Assembly: GCA_034422795.1 (NCBI GenBank)
Contig: DAOUJK010000006.1
Span: 1,662 to 65,661, forward strand
DNA from: Dehalococcoidia bacterium
Lineage (GTDB): Bacteria > Chloroflexota > Dehalococcoidia > Lucifugimonadales > Australimonadaceae
Reading direction: 5' to 3'
Length of the DNA stretch: 64,000 nt
Numbering within the stretch: position 1 is the first letter of the stretch; each line of letters starts with the position of its first letter. The position numbers were made by a program, and so were the translations under genes. The notes beneath the pieces are model-generated. The model worked only from the letters and a program-made list of their open reading frames with translations. It was not told the DNA's origin and did not search any database. Of this stretch, positions 11,453-34,816 are shown in pieces.

Positions 11453-14400
11453 ATGACATCGCTCATGCCCCGTGTCAACCGCGCCCCGATGCATCCCGTA
11501 AAGTCCTACGCCCGCACGCACCAGGTACTGGAGCCTTCCAACCTCGTCAATATCCAGCTCGAGTCGTTCGATGCGCTCAAGACGACCGGCATCCGTGAAG
11601 TGCTGGACGAGATCAATCCGGTGCAGGACGTTACCGGCAACCGGTTCGAGCTGCGCTTCGGGGCGCACTCGTTCCGCGAGCCCCGCTACTCGGAAGAGGA
11701 GTGCCGCGCGCGGGAGGTAACCTACGAAGCGCCTCTCTACGTCACGGTCGAGTTGGAGGTGAAGGAGACCGGCGAGGTCAAGGAGCAGACGCTCTTCTTC
11801 GGCGACATCCCGATGATGACCTCCACCGGTACTTTCGTCATCAACGGCGCCGAACGCGTCGTTGTGAGCCAGCTGGTGCGTTCGCCCGGGGCCTACTTCA
11901 CGCGCGTGCAGGACCCCAGCACGGGCCGCAACGTCTCCTTCTCGAAACTCATCCCCTATCGGGGCGCGTGGCTGGAGTTCGAGACCAGTCCCCGCGACGT
12001 GATCTCGGTGAAGATAGACCGCAAGCGCAAGTTGCCCGTCACCACGTTCCTCCGCGCCATCGGCTACAAGACCGGCTTCGCGACGGACCAGGAGATACTC
12101 GACCGGTTCGCCGACGTGGACGACGACCCTGAGCACCCCTACATCCGCACGACGCTGGAACGCGACACGGCGGTGCAGAACGAGGCGCAGGCGCTGATGG
12201 AGGTCTACCGCAGGCTCCGCCCCGGCGAGCCTCCCAGCGCGGAAAGCGCACGCACGCTGCTGGACAACCTCTTCTTCAACCCCCGCCGCTACGACCTGGG
12301 GCGGGTCGGGCGGTACAAGATGAACCGCCGCACCGGCAAGGACGTGCCGCAGGACAGCCGCACCCTCACCGCAGAGGACATCATCGAGATGATCAAGATG
12401 ATGATCCGCATCAACAACGGCGCGGCCAACCCTGACGACATCGACCACCTGGGAAACCGCCGCGTCCGCGCAGTCGGCGAACTCATCATGAACCAACTGC
12501 GCGTGGGCCTGCTCCGCATGGAGCGCGTGGTCAAAGAGCGCATGACGATCCTCGACCAAGGCGAGGCCACGCCCAGCGCCCTCATCAACATACGCCCCGT
12601 GGTCGCCGCGGTGCGCGAGTTCTTCGGGGGCTCCCAGCTCTCCCAGTTCATGGACCAGACGAACCCGCTGGCGGAGCTCACGCACAAGCGCCGTCTCTCC
12701 GCGCTTGGCCCGGGCGGACTCTCCCGCGAACGCGCCGGGTTCGACGTACGGGACGTGCACTACTCCCACTACGGCCGCATCTGCCCGATCGAAACCCCGG
12801 AAGGCCCGAACATCGGCCTGCTCGGCTCTCTTGCCACCTACGCCCGCCTCAACGACTACGGCTTCATCGAGACGCCCTACCGGAAAGTGCTGAAGGACAT
12901 CTCCAGCAAAGACCCGGATATCCAGGGCCGGACCGTCACCGCAACGGTGACCGGAGACGACGGCAAGGCTATCGTCCGCGCGAACCACGTCATCTCTGCG
13001 AACGCCGCGAAGAAGCTCGCCGCGCTCGACGAGCGCATGGTTGCCGTGCAGCCCTATGTGTCCGCCGATCCGGATGAGGTGGTCTACCTCCCCGCCGACG
13101 AGGAGGACAAGTTCGTAGTCGCGCAGGCCAACTCTCCCATGGACAACAAGTTCCAGCTGCTGGGGGAACGCGTGGAGTGCCGCGTTTCGGAGGACTACCT
13201 GATGGAGCCGCCTGAGCGCGTGGACTACATGGACGTCGCGCCGATACAGATAGTCAGCGTCTCCACCGCCCTCATCCCGTTCCTGGAGCACGACGACGCC
13301 AACCGGGCGTTGATGGGCTCCAACATGCAGCGCCAGGCGGTCCCGCTCATCAAACCGGATGCTCCACTGGTGTGCACCGGCATGGAACAGCGCATCGCAC
13401 GCGACTCGGGACAGATGGTGCTCGCCAAGGCCACGGGAGTGGTCACTTCCGTCACGGGCGAGGTGGTTGTTGTGAGGAGCGACGACGGCAAGGAACAGAC
13501 CCACGTGCTGCGGAAGTTCATCCGCTCCAACCAGGGCACGTGCCTCACGCAGCGGGCCATCGTCTCTGTCGGCGACGCCGTAGCTGAGGGAGACCCGCTC
13601 GCCGACAGCTCTTCCACGCAGGAAGGCGACCTCGCGCTGGGCCAGAACGTGCTCTGCGCCTTCATGGCCATGGAAGGGTACAACTTCGAGGACGCCATCA
13701 TCGTCTCTGAGAACCTCGTGCGCGACTCCAAGTTCACGTCCATCCACATCGAGCGGTACGAGGTCGAATCACGCGACACGAAGCTGGGTCCCGGCGAGAT
13801 CACGCGGGACATCCCAAGCGTCGGTGAAGACGCACTCCACAACCTGGACGAGGAAGGCATCATCCGGATAGGCGCGGAGGTAGGGCCCGGCGACATCCTC
13901 GTCGGCAAGGTAACGCCGAAAGGCGAGACTGAGCTGACGGCCGAGGAGAAACTGCTGCGCGCCATCTTCGGGGAAAAGGCCCGCGACGTTAAGGACACCT
14001 CTCTCCGCGTCCCCCACGGTGAGCGCGGCAAGGTCATCGACGTGAGGGTCATGTCGCGGGATAACGGAGACGAACTCTCCCCCGGCGTGAACAAGCTCGT
14101 GCGCGTGTGGGTCGCTCAGACCCGCACCCTCTCCGAAGGCGACAAGATGGCCGGACGCCACGGGAACAAGGGCGTCGTCTCCCGGATCATGCCGGTGGAG
14201 GATATGCCTTACCTGCCGGACGGCACTCCCGTGGACATCATCCTCAACCCCATAGGAGTGCCCTCCCGCATGAACCTGGGGCAGGTGCTGGAGACGCACC
14301 TGGGCCTGGCCGCCCACAAGTTGCGTTTTCGCGCAGCGACCCCCGTATTCGACGGCGCGACCGACGCGGACATCCGCAACGCCCTTGCCCGAGCGTGGCT

Positions 14401-23595: not shown

Positions 23596-24336
23596 ATGGA
23601 CACCACGGAAGCAGTCATCGATATAGAAACGGCAGACGGACCGATGGCCGTGGCCACCTCCCGCCCTGTGGAAGGCGGAACGCGGCCCGGAGTCATCGTG
23701 ATCATGGGAGGGACCGGAGTAACCCCCAACATCGTGAGCATCGTCGACCGCTTCGCCCGTGAGGGGTACGCGGCCGCCGCGCCGGACCTCTACCACCGCG
23801 CCGGCAGGCTGCGCACCATCCCGGCCGAGAAGCTGTGGGAGATGCGCGACGAACTCCGCGCCAACGGCTTCAGCGACGCGTCCAACGACATGGACGTGCA
23901 GGCCACCATCGACTATCTCCGCAACGACCTCAACGCAGGCCCCGTAGGCATCGTTGGCTTCTGCCTCGGCGGGCGGGTCTCGCTGCAGTCCGCGATCCGC
24001 GCCAGCGGGTTGTCGGCGGCCGCCGTCTTCTATGGCGGGTTCATGTTCCCCGGCGACGACCAGCCGGAGGCGTTCTCCGCCATGCGCGAGTCGGGGACGC
24101 TTGCCATCCCGGTCGTTGGCTTCTTCGGGGAGGAGGACCAGAACCCCACACCGGAGCAGGCGCGGATGCTGGACGCGCACCTCAGCGACCTCGGGAAGGA
24201 GCACGCGTTCCACTACTACGAAGGCGCGGGTCATGCGTTCTTCGGCGACGACTCTCCCAGCTACCGTCCCCATGCAGCGGCGGACGCCTGGGAGAAGACG
24301 CTCGCGTTCTTCGACCGCCACCTCCGGCAGGTATAA
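23596..24336 (+). CDS. dienelactone hydrolase family protein, paralog 3
   Basis: MDTTEAVIDIETADGPMAV..., GFCLGGRVS, GEEDQNP, GAGHAFF. Confidence 0.88.
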   Translation: MDTTEAVIDIETADGPMAVATSRPVEGGTRPGVIVIMGGTGVTPNIVSIVDRFAREGYAAAAPDLYHRAGRLRTIPAEKLWEMRDELRANGFSDASNDMDVQATIDYLRNDLNAGPVGIVGFCLGGRVSLQSAIRASGLSAAAVFYGGFMFPGDDQPEAFSAMRESGTLAIPVVGFFGEEDQNPTPEQARMLDAHLSDLGKEHAFHYYEGAGHAFFGDDSPSYRPHAAADAWEKTLAFFDRHLRQV

Positions 24337-24388: not shown

Positions 24389-24415
24389 GTCATTCCCGCG
24401 AAGGCGGGAAACCAG
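24389..24415. repeat. dispersed hairpin repeat (gtcattcccgcg-N-cgggaa.ccag family)
   Basis: gtcattcccgcgaaggcgggaaaccag. Related copies at 26956-27004 and 51506-51551. Confidence 0.7.
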
Positions 24416-24487
24416 CCCTCTGTCGTGCGGAGGTGGAGCGAACAGAACAGCGCGCATCAGCGCACGCAAGCACGAAGGAGCACTCGC

Positions 24488-25222
24488 ATGGACACGATAG
24501 AGCAGATGGTCGACATAGAGACGGCGGATGGGCCGATGGCAGCGCCGACGTCGCGCCCCGCTGACGGCGGCGCGCACCCGGCGGTGATCGTCGTCCAGGA
24601 AGTGTTCGGCGTGAACGCGAACATCGAGGGCATCGTGCAGCGTTTCGCGCAGGAGGGCTACATCGCCGCAGCGCCGGACCTGTACCACCGCGCCGGAAGG
24701 CTGCGCACCATCCCCTACGACAAGCTGCAGGAGATGCGGGAGGAGGTGCGGGCAGGCGGCTACGGCGACGCGTCCATCGACATGGATGTCCAGGCCACGA
24801 TCGACTGGCTGCGCAGCGACCCGAACGTCGGCGCGATAGGCATCGTGGGCTTCTGCCTCGGCGGGCGGGTCTCGATGCAGTCGGCGATACGCGCGAAGGG
24901 ACTGTCGGCCGCAGCCATCTACTACGGCGGGTTCATGTTCCCCGCGGACGACCAGCCTCAGGCGTTCTCCGTGATCCGCGAGGCCGAAGCGCTCTCGGTC
25001 CCGGTTGTGGGCTTCTTCGGTGAGGAGGACCAGAACCCGACGCCGGAGCAGGTCAGGACGCTGGACGAGCACCTCACCGCCCTCGGCAAGGAGCATGCGT
25101 TCCACATCTATGCGGGCGCGAACCACGGCTTCTTCTGCGACGAACGCGCCGGACACCGTCCTGAAGCGTCGGCGGACGCGTGGGAGAAGACGCTTGCTCA
25201 CTTCGCCAAGCACCTGAGTTGA
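24488..25222 (+). CDS. dienelactone hydrolase family protein, paralog 4
   Basis: Internal ATG of the listed ORF 23954..25222, preceded by GAAGGAG. MDTIEQMVDIETADGPMAA..., GFCLGGRVS, GEEDQNP, GANHGFF. Confidence 0.85.
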   Translation: MDTIEQMVDIETADGPMAAPTSRPADGGAHPAVIVVQEVFGVNANIEGIVQRFAQEGYIAAAPDLYHRAGRLRTIPYDKLQEMREEVRAGGYGDASIDMDVQATIDWLRSDPNVGAIGIVGFCLGGRVSMQSAIRAKGLSAAAIYYGGFMFPADDQPQAFSVIREAEALSVPVVGFFGEEDQNPTPEQVRTLDEHLTALGKEHAFHIYAGANHGFFCDERAGHRPEASADAWEKTLAHFAKHLS

Positions 25223-26900: not shown

Positions 26901-27039
26901 CCCGTCGTTCCTGCACAGGCCCGCGCCTTAGCGCACAACCTCGCAGCCATCCCTCGTCATTCCCGCCTCCCTCGTCATTCCCGCGTAGGCTGGAATCCAG
27001 TGACCCCGTGCCACCCGCTCATCCTGAGCTCGTCGAAGG
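26901..27039. repeat. cluster of dispersed repeat-family copies at the left edge of island 1
   Basis: 26901-26950 is the reverse complement of 50015-50064. Doubled gtcattcccgc hairpin repeat at 26956-27004. ccgctcatcctgagctcgtcgaagg at 27015-27039 is the inverted partner of 31897-31921. Confidence 0.75.
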
Positions 27040-27244
27040 GTCATGGTGAGCCTGTCGAACCACGCGCTACCACCGACAGCCGCCGTTGGGGTATAGTTCC
27101 CTGTTGCTAGGACCTGACCCTCGCCGAGAGCAAAGAAGGCGCGGAACACGATAGGCACAAGTGGGGATGCCACGCCCCCTTGTCATTCCGCGCTGGTTGG
27201 GTCCTAGCAAATCCTGCCTTGTGCCAGGCAAGGGGGCACCTGCG

Positions 27245-28759
27245 ATGGCCGACCATCCGTACCTCTCCGGCAACGCGCTCGTCTGCGACGACAACATCAA
27301 CGCGCTCCGTGAACTGCCGGAAGAGTGCATCGACCTGATCTACCTCGACCCGCCGTTCAACTCCAACCAGTTCTACGTCGCGGCATTCGGCGACAAGGGG
27401 ATGGTGGCGCAGCAACTGCGGGACATCTGGCGCTGGACGGTGGCCGCGCAGAACGCGTTCGACGGCATACCGCGCGGCCAGTTGCGAGACACGCTTCGGG
27501 GGATACGACTCCAAGCCGGAGAGAAGTCACCGATGGCAGCGTATGCGGTGTTCATGGGGACCCGCCTCACGGAGATGCGCCGTGTGCTCAAGCCGACAGG
27601 CAGTATCTATCTTCACTGCGACTGGCACGCCAATGCATACCTGAGGATTCTCATGGATGCGGTATTCGGCATAAGACAACATCGCAACGAGATAGTGTGG
27701 TGCTACACAGGGCCAAGCAACACCAGAAGCTGGTTTCCCCGCAAGCACGACACGATATTGTTCTACGCTAGGAGCAACGCAGCCTTGTTTAATCGAGACG
27801 ATGTTCGCGTCACATACAAGGGACTGCATGTTCAACATGAGTACGAAGGTGGAGGCGGTATCGGAGGGAACCTGACTCCGAGCAACATCGACCAGTACAT
27901 AGACCGAGGTAAGGTTCCCGAGGATTATTGGATAGAAGACCGTGATGGCATGACACCTGTAGCACGATTGCACGGGGAGCGTCTCGGTTATCCCACGCAG
28001 AAGCCCCTGGCCCTCCTCAATCGCATCATCACAGCCTCGTCCAACCCGGGCGACCTCGTGCTCGACCCGTTCTGCGGGTGTGGTACTGCCGCCGATGCGG
28101 CAGTCTCACTTGGCAGGAAGTACCTGGGCATCGACATCAGCGGCATCGCGGTGCGCGTCATGCAGCAGCGGCTGGAGTCGCGCGGGTCTGCCGTCGCGCC
28201 GGTGGTCTACGGCCTGACGTGGGACGAGTTCGAGTGGGATGAGTTCGAGAAGCGGGCGCTCGCGCAGCGCGACGAGGTGGAGGACGGGATACCCGGCTGG
28301 GCGTGGGCAGAGGACCGGGTCGCGGCGCTGCTGAACGCGGTGCCGAACGAGCGGAAGTCAGGCGACGGCGGGGTGGACGCGCGCTACTTCGGGGCGATGG
28401 ACATCGAGAAGCACGAGGGAATCATCGTTCCAATCCAGGTGAAGATGCACCGCACGCACTCGGTGGGGCGTCCCGACATGGACCGGCTGCTCGGCACGCA
28501 GACAGCGATGCAGAACCGTGGGCTGCACGCGCCGATGTCGATCATGGTGAGCCTGTACCCGCCGCCGGATTCCCTTCGGGTGTTCGCTGCGGAGCAGGGC
28601 CGCGTGACGCTGACGACGAATGAGGGTACGGCGGAGTACCCGCGCATGCAGGTGCTGAGCGTCGAGGAGATGCTGCGTCACGGAGAGCGCCCGAAGCTGC
28701 CGCCGGTGGACCCACGGTCGCTCGTGGGTGACACGCAGGACAAGATGCTGATTCTGTGA
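27245..28759 (+). CDS. beta-class N6A/N4C DNA methyltransferase fused to a C-terminal Mrr-like (PD-(D/E)xK) restriction endonuclease domain
   Basis: Motif IV LIYLDPPFNS precedes motif I LVLDPFCGCGTAA, which is the beta order. The C-terminus has GDGGVDA...IVPIQVKMH...VGRPDMDRLLG, resembling the Mrr catalytic core. ATG at 27245 chosen. Confidence 0.85.
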   Translation: MADHPYLSGNALVCDDNINALRELPEECIDLIYLDPPFNSNQFYVAAFGDKGMVAQQLRDIWRWTVAAQNAFDGIPRGQLRDTLRGIRLQAGEKSPMAAYAVFMGTRLTEMRRVLKPTGSIYLHCDWHANAYLRILMDAVFGIRQHRNEIVWCYTGPSNTRSWFPRKHDTILFYARSNAALFNRDDVRVTYKGLHVQHEYEGGGGIGGNLTPSNIDQYIDRGKVPEDYWIEDRDGMTPVARLHGERLGYPTQKPLALLNRIITASSNPGDLVLDPFCGCGTAADAAVSLGRKYLGIDISGIAVRVMQQRLESRGSAVAPVVYGLTWDEFEWDEFEKRALAQRDEVEDGIPGWAWAEDRVAALLNAVPNERKSGDGGVDARYFGAMDIEKHEGIIVPIQVKMHRTHSVGRPDMDRLLGTQTAMQNRGLHAPMSIMVSLYPPPDSLRVFAAEQGRVTLTTNEGTAEYPRMQVLSVEEMLRHGERPKLPPVDPRSLVGDTQDKMLIL

Positions 28760-28772
28760 GGGGGCTCGACAG

Positions 28773-29237
28773 TCACGAATCCCTTACGTCCATCCCCATG
28801 CTAGCTCGCTTCATGCTTCGGAATGACCGATGTTCTTCAGGCTTGATATAACGCCATGACTGAGGGACGACGAAGCGTTGGAACCGATGCCGCAATATGG
28901 CGAGACTCATTGGATTAGCGTACTGCCAAACCTCTTTGATCTCTAGGGCATATGCAACAGATTGTCCCTTATAGTAAGCATCGAAACCCTGCCTATCGAT
29001 TCCGGCAGAACCAGCCACGGCCTGCCAAACTTCATCCGGGGTACCAGTCCAGACTTCCCCAGCCAGGAAACCACCTTGCAGTTGCATGACAGGGCTAGTA
29101 ACGTAGATGAGCACCTCACGCCCTTGTATGTGCGTCATGGGGCGTCGCCGAAGCTCCATTCTTTTTCTGCCATCAAATATCAAGCCTGAGTAGTAAGGCT
29201 TTAGGGAGATGAGCAGGGGTGCCATCGATGTAGTCAT
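28773..29237 (-). CDS. stand-alone ASCH (PUA-like fold) domain protein
   Basis: LLISLKPYYSGLIFDGRKRMELRRR...VLIYVTSPV...VPQSWRYI matches the ASCH/COG4933-type pattern. Its ATG overlaps the upstream stop (ATGA), with GGAGGA inside the upstream gene's end. Low GC. Confidence 0.8.
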   Translation of the reverse strand: MTTSMAPLLISLKPYYSGLIFDGRKRMELRRRPMTHIQGREVLIYVTSPVMQLQGGFLAGEVWTGTPDEVWQAVAGSAGIDRQGFDAYYKGQSVAYALEIKEVWQYANPMSLAILRHRFQRFVVPQSWRYIKPEEHRSFRSMKRASMGMDVRDS

Positions 29238-31243
29238 CACTCCTCCGGAAATCCGAGTTGGAAGAGTTTGCTGAAGGTTGATTGCGGTATCTTCACAGGC
29301 CATTGAAAGACTGCGGCGATATTGTCTTGGGAAAACGCTGAGCGAATTTCCTTTAGTGTTATTCCTTTCTGAAAAGGAAAAGTGTGCGAAAAGCGCAGGG
29401 CCATGAGATTTCTGGACACATCTTGCTTGCACATGGTATACAAGTCATTCCATTCTAATGTCCCATACCTTCTAAACTTCTTATAGAGTTCCTTAGGCGT
29501 GTCGACTATGACCTCATCAAGGCGTGAAACTGCGACGATTTCCTTAGGATTTCCGCTGACGTACCACAGTATTCGGCCTGGAGCTTGAATCAACTTCGGA
29601 GAACGGCCTGAGCGGTAGTAGACGTTGGTCCAACGGAGCAGAACATTCTGATCACCTCCGAATAGATCACGGCTGGACTGCTGCCTGTCGAAAAGGTTCA
29701 GGGCATATCCTGGCCGAATCGGTATTACGTAATAATTCTGATCGACTCTAGAAACCAGCGGAGAACAATGCGCTTCAATTTCTAGAGAATCCATCTTCTC
29801 GTAGACAGGCAACGACTCTGGCGATAAAGCGCCGATCTGCAAGAGCGTTTGGTCTTTGTCGAAGTAGTTTGTAAAACAAAACCTCACATACGCATCGCCG
29901 CATTCAGTGAATCCCATTTCAGAGAGACCTTGAATCAACTCAGGCGATAAAGCAGAAGGCTCAAGTTTGACCATAGCTAAATTCCTTCGCATAGCCTGGT
30001 AAATGAGATCTGAAACGATGAACCGCCCGAACAGCGAGAGATCAACGGAAGACGCCACTCTACCTAAACCTACTGTCAGCGTTCGTAGACTAGCATGGCT
30101 CAGGATTCGGAGCGCAACAGGTTCCGTCCCTGACCACAAGACCTCTACTTCGCTGGACGAGTCGGCCAAGGCCGCTTCGACCTTCACGCGTAGTTGACCA
30201 ATCCGCTCTCCTGATTGGAATTGCCTGAGTGGAATCCTAGGGAGTTCGTTAGCCGTCAAAGCTCGCCAAACTAGGCCAAGTCCGGCAACATAGTCAGGTA
30301 CCGACTCCTGACTATCAGAAAGTTCCCTCAGCCGGAGGAGGAGCTCAGCAGGACGCAAGAGTTGGAGGCCTGTTACCTGTTCAATCTGTTCTGCTTTTCT
30401 CAGCAAGGGCTGGTCTCTCGTCACAAAGAAACGCACGTCAGACGCTCCGGCTTTTGCGAGATGATTGATATCGGACACCTGGCTCTCAGTGCCACTGGGT
30501 AGAATCTCTCTCAATGGTGCGACAAGGTTTTCAGCTGAGATTGGGTCATGGCGTATGTCAGGGAATTGGCTAGCCCTTATTCTAGCGCTGTTGCGCTCGC
30601 TTGCATTGGCGTTCCGGTTGATTTCAGTCAGTAACTCATCGGTTGTCCAGATATTCAGTGAATCGACGAATAAATCCGAGAGTAAGGCTTTCGAAGGCAA
30701 CGTGCTTTCGTTGTCCGGTTCATTGAAGTCGAAGAATATCTGGGCGTCTATGACGACATCAAGGATATCTTCCGAGATATTTGCCCTAAAGAGCGCTAAC
30801 TGGTCATCAGATGCTACAACCAGACGCCACCGAGTAAGGAGATGCCCTTCTCTCGACCGGCCGGGTTTTTCGCCAACCGGCACGAAGCCAAATTTAGGCC
30901 ACATCTGGTGCGCAGGAAAGTCATTCCGGCAATTGAGCCTGATAACTTTCTGCGTAGTAACGGTGGCTTTCAGCGCTTCAATGAGCCCTTTAGCAATGCC
31001 CTGCCCTCTGAACCCTTCCGCTACACAGAGATGAGCGATGCGAAAGCGATCATGGTAAGCCGCATAGAGGAGATATCCTGCGAGTTCGCCATCCTCTGTC
31101 CTTGCTCCAAGCACATTCGCATCTTGGACATGCTTTTCAAGAACAACTCGAGGGAGAAAGCCGATTGTCCCGCTATTCTGTTTCATCAGGGCGTCGATCG
31201 CATCAACGTCAGCTACCTGTAGTTGCGAAATCTCTATCGCCAT
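29237..31243 (-). CDS. 668-aa multidomain protein: N-terminal GNAT acetyltransferase, PIN-like domain, degenerate GNAT-like middle region, C-terminal ASCH-like domain
   Basis: GNAT motif A in HLCVAEGFRGQGIAKGLIEAL. PIN-like VVIDAQIFFDF...DINHLAKAGASDVRFFVTRDQPL. C-terminal YYVIPIRPGYA...ILWYVSG...IVAVSRLDEV resembles the downstream ASCH protein. About 48% GC. Confidence 0.8.
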   Translation of the reverse strand: MAIEISQLQVADVDAIDALMKQNSGTIGFLPRVVLEKHVQDANVLGARTEDGELAGYLLYAAYHDRFRIAHLCVAEGFRGQGIAKGLIEALKATVTTQKVIRLNCRNDFPAHQMWPKFGFVPVGEKPGRSREGHLLTRWRLVVASDDQLALFRANISEDILDVVIDAQIFFDFNEPDNESTLPSKALLSDLFVDSLNIWTTDELLTEINRNANASERNSARIRASQFPDIRHDPISAENLVAPLREILPSGTESQVSDINHLAKAGASDVRFFVTRDQPLLRKAEQIEQVTGLQLLRPAELLLRLRELSDSQESVPDYVAGLGLVWRALTANELPRIPLRQFQSGERIGQLRVKVEAALADSSSEVEVLWSGTEPVALRILSHASLRTLTVGLGRVASSVDLSLFGRFIVSDLIYQAMRRNLAMVKLEPSALSPELIQGLSEMGFTECGDAYVRFCFTNYFDKDQTLLQIGALSPESLPVYEKMDSLEIEAHCSPLVSRVDQNYYVIPIRPGYALNLFDRQQSSRDLFGGDQNVLLRWTNVYYRSGRSPKLIQAPGRILWYVSGNPKEIVAVSRLDEVIVDTPKELYKKFRRYGTLEWNDLYTMCKQDVSRNLMALRFSHTFPFQKGITLKEIRSAFSQDNIAAVFQWPVKIPQSTFSKLFQLGFPEE

Positions 31244-31670
31244 CGTCTAACTGCTGCCTGCCTGAGATGCTACTTGCCGGATGCTACCACCGGTTGTCGT
31301 CTGGCCTGTATCTATTTGGGTTACAGCCTATGTTGTGTCTGTGGATGCCAGTGCCCGTGCAGGATAGCGACGGTAGGCACTACGGCGAAAGAGGCTGATG
31401 TCACACACCCGAGCGGCTCGTTGCTCACGAGGGACGCCCTTACACCTGACGGGGTGCCCCACCCCTCTTGCCCACCGCATGGCCCGTCCGCGCTCTCTGG
31501 GTTCCAGCGGACGCTGGAATGACGAACCCATCCTGTCCATCGATATTGATTCCCTGATCCGTGACACGCGCTCCTTTCGCGGTCGCGCCCTGACCTCGTA
31601 CGCTGGTCGGTGACGGCGCGCTGCCCCGGCTCTGGGCCCCAGGGTACGCGGGGCGTCCGCAGGAGTGGCG

Positions 31671-31720
31671 TGGCCCACTTTGGCGCACCTTGGCGCACTT
31701 TGGCGCACTTTTCGCGACCT
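31671..31720. repeat. five tandem 10-bp units (consensus TGGCGCACTT), helically phased
   Basis: tggcccactt tggcgcacct tggcgcactt tggcgcactt ttcgcgacct, contiguous, inside a 730-bp non-coding gap. Confidence 0.85.
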
Positions 31721-31889: not shown

Positions 31890-31971
31890 CCCAGGTCCTT
31901 CGACAAGCTCAGGATGAGCGGCGTGGGTCGCCTCCCTGTTGCCGCAGGGGGCGGGCGCGTAAACTGCCGAC

Positions 31972-34169: not shown

Positions 34170-34412
34170 ATGAAGAGCAAACTCACCATCACCGTGGACT
34201 CGGAACTCATCCCGGCGGCCAAACGCTACGCGCGCTCGAAGGGGGTGTCGCTCTCGGCAGTGATCGAGCAGGTGCTGCGCGAGGCGACCGCGAAGAACGA
34301 GCCAACCTTCGCAGAGAAATGGCTAGGCGCGTTTCAACCGGCACATCACGTCAAGCCGGAACTCCTGGACGACCCACGCTACGACTACCTCGCGCGCAAG
34401 TACCTGAAGTGA
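34170..34412 (+). CDS. type II antitoxin (VapB-like, RHH-type N-terminus)
   Basis: 80 aa. N-terminal beta-strand/helix pattern KLTITVDSELIPAAKRYARSKGVSLSAVIEQVL. Its stop overlaps the PIN gene start (GTGA). Confidence 0.7.
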   Translation: MKSKLTITVDSELIPAAKRYARSKGVSLSAVIEQVLREATAKNEPTFAEKWLGAFQPAHHVKPELLDDPRYDYLARKYLK

Positions 34413-34816
34413 TACTCCTCGACACCGATGTTCTACTGGACGTAGCCCTCAGGCGGCAGCCCCATGCCACGACGGCGGTTGAACTGCTCAATCGCTTCCA
34501 ACGCGGCGAGGAGAGGGTGTTCCTAGCCTGGCACACCGTCTCCAACCTCTTCTATCTCATCGCACGCGAACGAGAAGCGGCTACTGCCCGGGATTTCATC
34601 CTGGAGCTCATCCGGTTCGTCCAGATCGCCCCTACCAGCACCGAGGCTATCCGATACGCCGCATCGCTTCCGATGGATGATTTCGAGGATGCGATGCAGG
34701 TGGCTGCGGCGCGGGCATGCGGGGCGGAGTACATCGTCACGCGGAACCTGAGCGACTTCGAACGCTCCCCTATCCCCGCGCTCACTCCACAGGAGGCACT
34801 CGCCCGGCTGCGCTGA
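34409..34816 (+). CDS. vapC: PIN-domain toxin VapC
   Basis: VILLDTDVLLD..., ...DDFEDAMQVAAA..., YIVTRNLSDF carry the PIN acidic residues. GTG start overlaps the antitoxin stop. Confidence 0.85.
   Translation: MILLDTDVLLDVALRRQPHATTAVELLNRFQRGEERVFLAWHTVSNLFYLIAREREAATARDFILELIRFVQIAPTSTEAIRYAASLPMDDFEDAMQVAAARACGAEYIVTRNLSDFERSPIPALTPQEALARLR

Follow-up and report, generated by a model that had tools for sequence, protein, structure and literature searches.

Operons of the (PIN)-GNAT-EVE type have been predicted computationally. The portion of the survey by Bell, Wolf & Koonin (2020, BMC Biol) that deals with them, citing Iyer et al. (2013, NAR), reports that these operons almost always encode an ASCH protein. 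The same portion states that they often adjoin type I restriction-modification systems and predicts a toxin-antitoxin (TA) or defence role for them, describing them as experimentally uncharacterised (Bell et al. 2020). ZmASCH, an ASCH protein of Zymomonas mobilis (PDB 5GUQ/5GUS), binds single-stranded RNA (ssRNA) and cleaves it in a Mg-dependent manner (Kim et al. 2017), and a 2026 preprint reports that E. coli tRNA loses N4-acetylcytidine (ac4C) to ZmASCH in vitro. Here we describe two adjacent genes of a Dehalococcoidia bacterium (GenBank assembly GCA_034422795.1, contig DAOUJK010000006.1). They lie in a 64-kb stretch of DNA that we refer to as the window. The pair very probably belongs to the '(PIN)-GNAT-EVE + ASCH' class, which corresponds to the PADLOC candidate system PDC-M11, and is a GNAT-extended variant of a class already predicted. 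Our preferred interpretation, to which we give a probability of about 0.55, is that the two genes are one horizontally transferred conflict module (defence or TA-like) of the PDC-M11 class with an extra N-terminal GNAT, in which the large protein would be an effector and the small one its antidote.

The gene pair and its relation to PDC-M11

The two genes and the site that links them are as follows.

29237..31243, minus strand: large gene, an open reading frame (ORF) for 668 amino acids (aa; stop included), with GNAT, PIN, GNAT-like and PUA/ASCH-like domains
28773..29237, minus strand: small gene, an ORF for 154 aa from ATG, encoding a stand-alone ASCH protein of the ZmASCH / PDC-M11B type
29240..29246, minus strand: Shine-Dalgarno sequence GGAGGAG for the small gene, read from the sequence, inside the 3' end of the large gene

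We compared both proteins with PADLOC-DB v2. The small protein matched PDC-M11B over its full length (E 2.9e-30), and aa 464-635 of the large protein matched positions 292-458 of PDC-M11A (E 3.4e-17). The same models recognise RefSeq plasmid operons annotated as 'N-acetyltransferase' or 'EVE domain' plus ASCH (E 1e-137 and 1e-50 for PDC-M11A and B), and the small protein is homologous to the ASCH genes that adjoin annotated GNAT/EVE genes on plasmids. PDC-M11B also matches ZmASCH itself (E 3.3e-29). The M11A models span a PIN region (positions 2-155) plus GNAT-EVE. In relatives of the large protein, positions 2-155 align to the PIN region, and in a full-length homologue from Calothrix, aa 356-696 align in one stretch to the GNAT-EVE core. 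The initial annotation had recognised no named TA or defence system in this architecture. That statement has to be withdrawn, because candidate PDC-M11 matches and '(PIN)-GNAT-EVE + ASCH' operons had already been described.

The window pair and the PDC-M11 class have in common PIN and PUA-like domains in this order, apparently with a GNAT-like domain between them, an adjacent ASCH gene, homology of both proteins at the level of hidden Markov models (HMMs), and an association with type I or other restriction-modification genes, COG2865 and SNF2 helicases. The N-terminal PIN domain, optional in the class, is present in the window protein, where an additional GNAT precedes it. However, the two also differ. 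The window variant has this extra canonical GNAT fused at its N terminus, its sequence is very remote and matches only about 35% of the PDC-M11A model, and its C-terminal domain is modelled as nearer ZmASCH than EVE structures. The glycine-rich loop of its middle GNAT-like domain is more degenerate than in distant relatives. Unlike the class, it has no AAA_17 ATPase and no helix-turn-helix (HTH) domain. The canonical PDC-M11 operon on a plasmid of Pseudomonas sp. CIP-10 (L084, 3377-6009) encodes an ATP-binding protein, a GNAT-EVE protein (352 aa), an ASCH protein (138 aa) and a GNAT protein (198 aa). In this operon, the one canonical example inspected, the separate GNAT gene after ASCH parallels the fused N-terminal GNAT of the window protein. 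BLASTP found no similarity between these two GNATs.

The junction of the two window genes reads GGAGGAG-TGA-TG. The stop codon TGA (29239-29237) and the start codon ATG (29237-29235) share one base (TGATG), and an alternative start for the small gene, GTG at 29240, would give a 4-nt GTGA overlap. The initial annotation had described an ATGA overlap, which is incorrect for the window but is the commonest junction among homologous loci (49/66). Start and stop overlap at about 60 of these 66 loci, and the genes overlap or nearly abut at almost every one. The Shine-Dalgarno sequence claimed inside the end of the first gene is there (GGAGGAG, 29246-29240), and translational coupling of the two genes stands despite the corrected junction.

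The base composition of the pair is foreign. Its GC content is 50.3% (large gene, 49.9%; small gene, 51.8%), and that of the window is 65.5% overall and 66.2% when positions 27001-31600 are set aside, close enough to the 48% and 68% given originally. The low-GC island contains no match to an Rfam family and no recognisable sigma-70-like promoter, and there are no tRNA genes within the 64-kb window.

Domains and conserved residues of the two proteins

The large protein divides into four domains.

30809..31243, minus strand: canonical N-terminal GNAT (aa 1-145), from Pfam, Foldseek, a profile search against the PDB and motif conservation
30314..30772, minus strand: PIN nuclease domain (aa ~158-310), from Pfam matches in relatives and an invariant acidic tetrad
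29804..30298, minus strand: middle GNAT-like domain (aa 316-480), from AlphaFold2 (AF2) topology and weak profile matches
29240..29746, minus strand: C-terminal PUA-like domain (aa ~500-668), from a separate AF2 model, Foldseek, hhalign and PADLOC

This parse is essentially the one first proposed (GNAT, PIN, GNAT-like, ASCH-like), with the middle domain as its weakest call. All of the motifs quoted in support were also found (FRGQGIAKGL at aa 78-87, VVIDAQIFFDF at 163-173 and HLAKAGASDVRFFVTRD at 261-277).

The N-terminal GNAT matched Pfam Acetyltransf_10/1/7 at aa 37-137 (E 1e-10 to 1e-8). Its acetyl-CoA motif, R79-G-Q-G82-I-A84, is well conserved across 68 sequences (R or Q in 61, G in 60 and A in 64), and some relatives of the large protein have no such domain. 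An AF2 model of the full-length protein was built on 40 homologues (predicted local distance difference test score [pLDDT], 76). Among the best 50 of its 581 Foldseek matches (E ≤ 0.001), Ard1, Naa10 and RimI came first, and a family profile of the domain found N-alpha-acetyltransferases among PDB sequences (E 4e-5). Aminoglycoside acetyltransferases were also among the top structure and sequence relatives. The profile found no TacT/AtaT-type toxin in the PDB at E ≤ 0.1, and there was none among the best 50 of the 581 Foldseek matches. The domain is also not of the TmcA type. The initial comparison of this domain with TacT/AtaT/ItaT-type toxins is not supported, its nearest relatives being the N-alpha-acetyltransferases Ard1, Naa10 and RimI. 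What it shares with the GNAT toxins (TacT, AtaT, ItaT and KacT) is the GNAT fold and the acetyl-CoA motif. Its chemistry could be similar by analogy (alpha-amino acetylation), because its nearest relatives are N-alpha-acetyltransferases. However, it is part of a multidomain 668-aa protein, and the partner is a downstream ASCH protein rather than an upstream ribbon-helix-helix (RHH) or HTH antitoxin.

PIN domains are mainly RNases. The acidic tetrad of the PIN region (D166, E203, D258 and D277) is invariant in 68 of 68 sequences. The window sequence by itself had no Pfam PIN match, and a profile of the region found nothing among PDB sequences. Therefore, the identity of this domain was taken from relatives. 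Eight or nine of 33 family members matched Pfam PIN or PIN_3, and two distant full-length relatives exceeded the PIN_3 gathering score (P0211, 34.2 bits; P0242, 28.7 bits). The canonical four acidic residues are what the domain has in common with the toxins of VapBC systems. In contrast to those, it is internal to a large fusion protein and has no VapB-type antitoxin. Both catalytic centres of the large protein, the N-terminal GNAT and PIN, are apparently intact.

The middle domain has the secondary-structure order b1-a1-a2-b2-b3-b4-a3-b5-a4-b6 in the AF2 model, which is the GNAT order. Profile matches to GNAT structures were weak but recurred (1yvk, E 0.07, or 0.006 with a broader profile; 1yx0, E 0.1). 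A single-sequence scan gave no relevant Pfam match, and hhalign found no similarity to the profile of the N-terminal GNAT. The acetyl-CoA loop looks degenerate; distant relatives keep R-V-x-x-G-x-L-G-x-T. With moderate confidence, based on the model, we assign this domain a GNAT-like fold.

The C-terminal region was modelled separately (pLDDT 83.5), because matches to the N-terminal GNAT swamped the full-length Foldseek search. Its best PDB match was ZmASCH (E 3e-9; template modelling score, ~0.8), and behind it came the AF2351 ASCH protein, EVE/THYN1 (E 5e-5), YTH and McrB-N readers. A comparison by hhalign with the family of the small ASCH protein indicated a distant kinship (E 3.4e-5). Together with the ZmASCH-like fold of the model, this bears out the original observation that the C-terminal segment is patterned like the downstream protein. 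The Pfam EVE and ASCH models did not match the region in a single-sequence scan, and a word-indexed search for homologues of the C-terminal 187 aa gave only fragments of its own family, with no new architectures.

The small protein is, as first described, an ASCH protein, and it is of the ZmASCH type over its full length (phmmer, E 1.4e-9; family profile, E 1.5e-21). It shares the GxKxxExR octapeptide with ZmASCH (here G23-R-K25-R-M-E28-L-R30). K25, E28 and R30 are invariant across 33 sequences, and G23 is likewise conserved, as are Y45, Q126 and S127. ZmASCH residues Y47, Q127 and S128, implicated in RNA binding and cleavage (Kim et al. 2017), are kept. According to the 2026 preprint, GKER-type ASCH proteins require the motif Lys and Glu to deacetylate ac4C in tRNA. 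The window protein consists of the ASCH domain only, whereas the source protein of ZmASCH is annotated as HTH containing. Mg-dependent ssRNA cleavage and removal of ac4C from tRNA in vitro are activities reported for ZmASCH and only putative in the window protein.

The two ASCH-like domains of the pair differ in this motif. GxKxx[E/T]xR, the feature of the ASCH ac4C deacetylases (GKER and GK[T/S]R classes), is present in the small protein, but the fused C-terminal domain has lost the octapeptide and has no Lys/Glu pair at the equivalent position. It has instead an invariant aromatic-rich core (W538, Y542, Y543, W560 and Y561). This suggests that the free ASCH protein is catalytically competent and that the fused domain is a predicted reader, for binding only. 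The proposal that the small protein might reverse a modification made by the large one has gained some support from this contrast.

Pairing, distribution and neighbourhood

There are more than 500 full-length homologues of the large protein. Clustering at 50% identity leaves about 1,100 representatives of its C-terminal domain, mostly from proteins of 665-715 aa. Linkage, GC content and neighbours were counted at 80 loci (L001-L080) obtained by scanning species-representative genomes with patterns that favour close relatives of the query. An ASCH gene was immediately downstream of the large gene at all 79 assessable loci; at the remaining one, a contig end truncates the locus. That the two genes are neighbours across genomes, which had been put forward as something to check, is therefore clear. 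Furthermore, in P0271 (860 aa) the large protein and its ASCH partner are naturally fused.

The relatives at the 80 loci, at 38-71% identity, are patchily distributed over about ten phyla, and most of them are in metagenome-assembled genomes of the sponge-symbiont type. Carriers include Dehalococcoidia, other Chloroflexota, Latescibacterota, Poribacteria, Nitrospirales, Vicinamibacterales, Binatia, Alpha- and Gammaproteobacteria, Verrucomicrobiales and Porifericomitales, which we take to be typical marine sponge-symbiont groups. This suggests cross-phylum exchange of the pair inside one habitat. The names of some carrier metagenome-assembled genomes look sponge derived (RHO3_bin and APA_bin). 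Full-length homologues also occur in cultured organisms, on plasmid pCAL6303.01 of Calothrix PCC 6303, on a plasmid of Nostoc CENA543 and in Prevotella oral taxon 299. No relatives of the pair were found among IMG/VR viral contigs.

The GC content of the pair is below that of its flanks at all 80 loci (median, 49% versus 59%), and its genomic position varies between genomes. At one locus (L081, identical to L001), the pair and an IS30-type transposase lie between ccmABC-like genes and ccmE, splitting the ccm operon. The public gene calls for this locus show no gene at the ASCH ORF (12004-12435), so annotation can miss the small partner.

Of the 79 assessable loci, 12 have a disrupted large gene. 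It is interrupted by 1.3-2 kb at L043, L062, L068 and L073 and has frame changes or an internal deletion at L023, L057, L063, L066, L071, L072, L075 and L076. The ASCH gene is intact at 11 of the 12. Thus, at 11 loci the large gene alone is broken, and at no locus is it the small gene alone. This asymmetry fits toxin-antidote logic, although it is only weakly informative.

Next to the window pair, in the same low-GC island, is a convergent gene.

27161..28759, plus strand: N6/N4 DNA methyltransferase with a C-terminal Mrr_cat-like nuclease domain

The methyltransferase-nuclease fusion noted initially is firm in its methylase part (Pfam N6_N4_Mtase, E 1.5e-43), and its Mrr_cat-like part is just under the Pfam cut-off (20.2 bits against 21; E 6.7e-4). 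At 78 of the 80 loci the gene is missing altogether, and the remaining two, L070 and L001, which are the closest relatives, have only 3' remnants of it beside the pair. Therefore, we rejected it as a conserved partner.

A census of the 7 kb around the pair found recurrent defence-type neighbours at 36 of the 80 loci, with restriction-modification genes at 25. The neighbours were as follows.

Eco57I/MmeI-type methylases: 14 loci
FRG-TPR proteins: 10 loci
PLD-SNF2 helicases: 9 loci
HsdM: 6 loci
HsdS: 5 loci
AlbA2/HATPase_c_4 proteins (COG2865): 5 loci
HsdR: 4 loci
RES-domain proteins: 4 loci
Large N6/N4 methylases: 4 loci
AAA_21 ATPases: 3 loci

On Calothrix plasmid pCAL6303.01, the pair lies in a defence island, between a Dcm/Eco29kI system and McrBC-like genes. 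The defence context first suggested from the window is thus that of a good fraction of loci.

Several further features of the window were noted. The low-GC island with the methylase and the pair, 4.9 kb long, is flanked by inverted repeats (27015-27039 and 31897-31921, 25 nt, 96%), and a second inverted pair lies around it (26972-27008 and 31489-31525, 37 nt, 81%). We considered these repeats (GTCATTCCCGCG and CTCAGGATGAGCGG) as ends of a mobile element and rejected them, since the motifs recur at 24389, 25343 and 51506. They look like dispersed elements of the repetitive extragenic palindromic (REP) kind rather than island-specific ends. L070 has an 80-bp stretch of the window (31528-31607) next to its own pair, with the relative orientation reversed. 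Upstream of the large gene, the 728-bp intergenic region contains three overlapping 20-nt copies spaced by 10 nt (31671-31710), in effect a 10-bp tandem repeat of roughly four units (TGGCGCACTT-like); this region has no Rfam match or promoter-like site. Two tandem paralogous genes for dienelactone hydrolases (23596-24336 and ~24480-25222, plus strand) encode much alike N termini (MDTTEAVIDIETADGPMA and MDTIEQMVDIETADGPMA). The window also has a VapBC-like pair.

34170-34816, plus strand: VapBC-like pair, an 80-aa RHH/DUF6364 (CcdA-like) protein (34170-34412) followed by a PIN_3 protein (E 5e-18)

Proposed mechanism and alternatives

In the model that we favour, the large protein would be the effector. 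Its fused PUA-like domain, which has lost the ASCH motif, and its degenerate GNAT-like domain would bind a nucleic acid substrate, which is most likely RNA (tRNA or some other kind). This bound substrate would be acetylated by the N-terminal GNAT, and the PIN domain could cleave it. Translational coupling would ensure that the small ASCH protein is made in a fixed ratio. With its Lys-Glu-Arg motif, that protein would serve as the antidote or a regulator. It could remove the acetyl mark, occupy either the same substrate or the effector itself, or do both. The substrate, the direction of control, the toxicity and an anti-phage role are what we infer from the makeup of the pair. The specific writer/eraser mechanism is plausible but more tentative than the conflict module as such, and we consider it less likely than not. 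Less likely still is its most complete form, a self-contained immune or addiction module acting on tRNA or another nucleic acid, in which the GNAT might write an acetyl mark, the catalytically dead ASCH-like domain read the substrate, the PIN domain cleave it and the free ASCH protein erase the mark to keep the host alive. DarTG has only the proposed logic in common with this (an effector writes a nucleic acid mark, and a co-transcribed partner with an eraser fold removes it), together with the toxin-first gene order. There is no homology, and reversal is hypothetical here. Scans with Pfam, PADLOC and NCBIfam found no ADP-ribosyltransferase or macrodomain.

Several observations weigh against the conflict module or its proposed mechanism. 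The N-terminal GNAT is nearest protein N-alpha-acetyltransferases, not tRNA-acetylating toxins or cytidine acetyltransferases, and the GNAT assignment of the middle domain is weak. ZmASCH was inactive on the free ac4C nucleoside and had no detectable effect in vivo in E. coli, according to the 2026 preprint. Comparison with canonical plasmid GNAT-EVE proteins by BLASTP and by profile and single-sequence hhalign gave no significant similarity, and the apparent link to PDC-M11A runs through HMMs and intermediate sequences. A search of the literature found no experimental study of any class member. Gene length alone would produce the 11:0 asymmetry in disruption about 10% of the time, and long-read assembly errors may account for some of the frameshifts in the large gene. 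Finally, no defence neighbour is recognised at about half of the loci, and the wider flanks in the window are housekeeping or metabolic genes (metabolic also at L081).

The main rival explanation is a modification-sensing, restriction-like module. Here the fused and free PUA-like domains would both be specificity subunits for a modified base of invading DNA or RNA, the PIN domain would be the sole warhead, the GNATs would regulate it (for example, by auto-acetylation or as a metabolic acetyl-CoA input), and the free ASCH protein would not be an eraser. HsdS-ASCH and HTH-ASCH fusions suggest DNA binding (Bell et al. 2020). The fold of the fused domain is nearest modified-base readers, and its invariant aromatic-rich core fits such a role. 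As has been reported for PIN-GNAT-EVE, the pair often has COG2865 and restriction-modification genes of types I and IIG next to it, and McrBC-like genes adjoin it in Calothrix. However, if both domains were merely readers, an invariant K/E/R in the free one and none in the fused one would be unexpected. The acetyl-CoA motif of the N-terminal GNAT has also been kept under selection, and RNases make up most of the PIN domains. We consider this explanation rather unlikely, although it comes closest to the favoured one.

Two other explanations are less likely than that, because of the invariant PIN tetrad, the ZmASCH RNA data and a distribution that is mobile, patchy and occasionally pseudogenised. 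One is self-protective or counter-defence acetylation of DNA bases, in which the GNAT would mark self or mobile-element DNA and the PUA-like domains would target or read the mark. This has been predicted for the GNAT-EVE class (Iyer et al. 2013, as summarised in the relevant part of Bell et al. 2020), PIN-less GNAT-EVE versions are common in prophages (Bell et al. 2020), and DNA methyltransferases are neighbours in the window and at many loci. However, the IMG/VR viral contigs gave no relative, the window variant has no DNA-binding HTH, and both the invariant PIN tetrad and the findings on ZmASCH speak for an RNA target. We regard it as improbable. The other, that the pair is a housekeeping RNA-modification turnover system (for example, a writer and an eraser of tRNA ac4C) with no conflict role, seems very improbable. 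ASCH proteins are reported to be tRNA ac4C deacetylases, and metabolic genes are found in the wider flanks in the window and at L081. Against this stand a patchy spread over about ten phyla at 38-71% identity, a GC content always below that of the flanks, varying insertion sites with nearby insertion sequence (IS) elements, and disruption of the large gene at 12 of 79 loci. The GNAT is also not of the TmcA type, and the PIN nuclease would be hard to explain.

The PDC-M11 class is widespread, and a free ASCH protein that keeps its motif beside a fused domain that has lost it offers a concrete division of labour between eraser and reader. The pair also offers a possible physiological setting for the tRNA ac4C deacetylation recently claimed for ASCH proteins. 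Experiments are feasible, because Calothrix, Nostoc and Prevotella carriers are in culture. The spread of the pair over phyla of the sponge-symbiont type would be an example of defence-gene exchange inside one community. If the complete writer, reader, eraser and cutter module proved true, it would be an acetylation-based counterpart of DarTG and would provide the first biological context for bacterial ASCH deacetylases.

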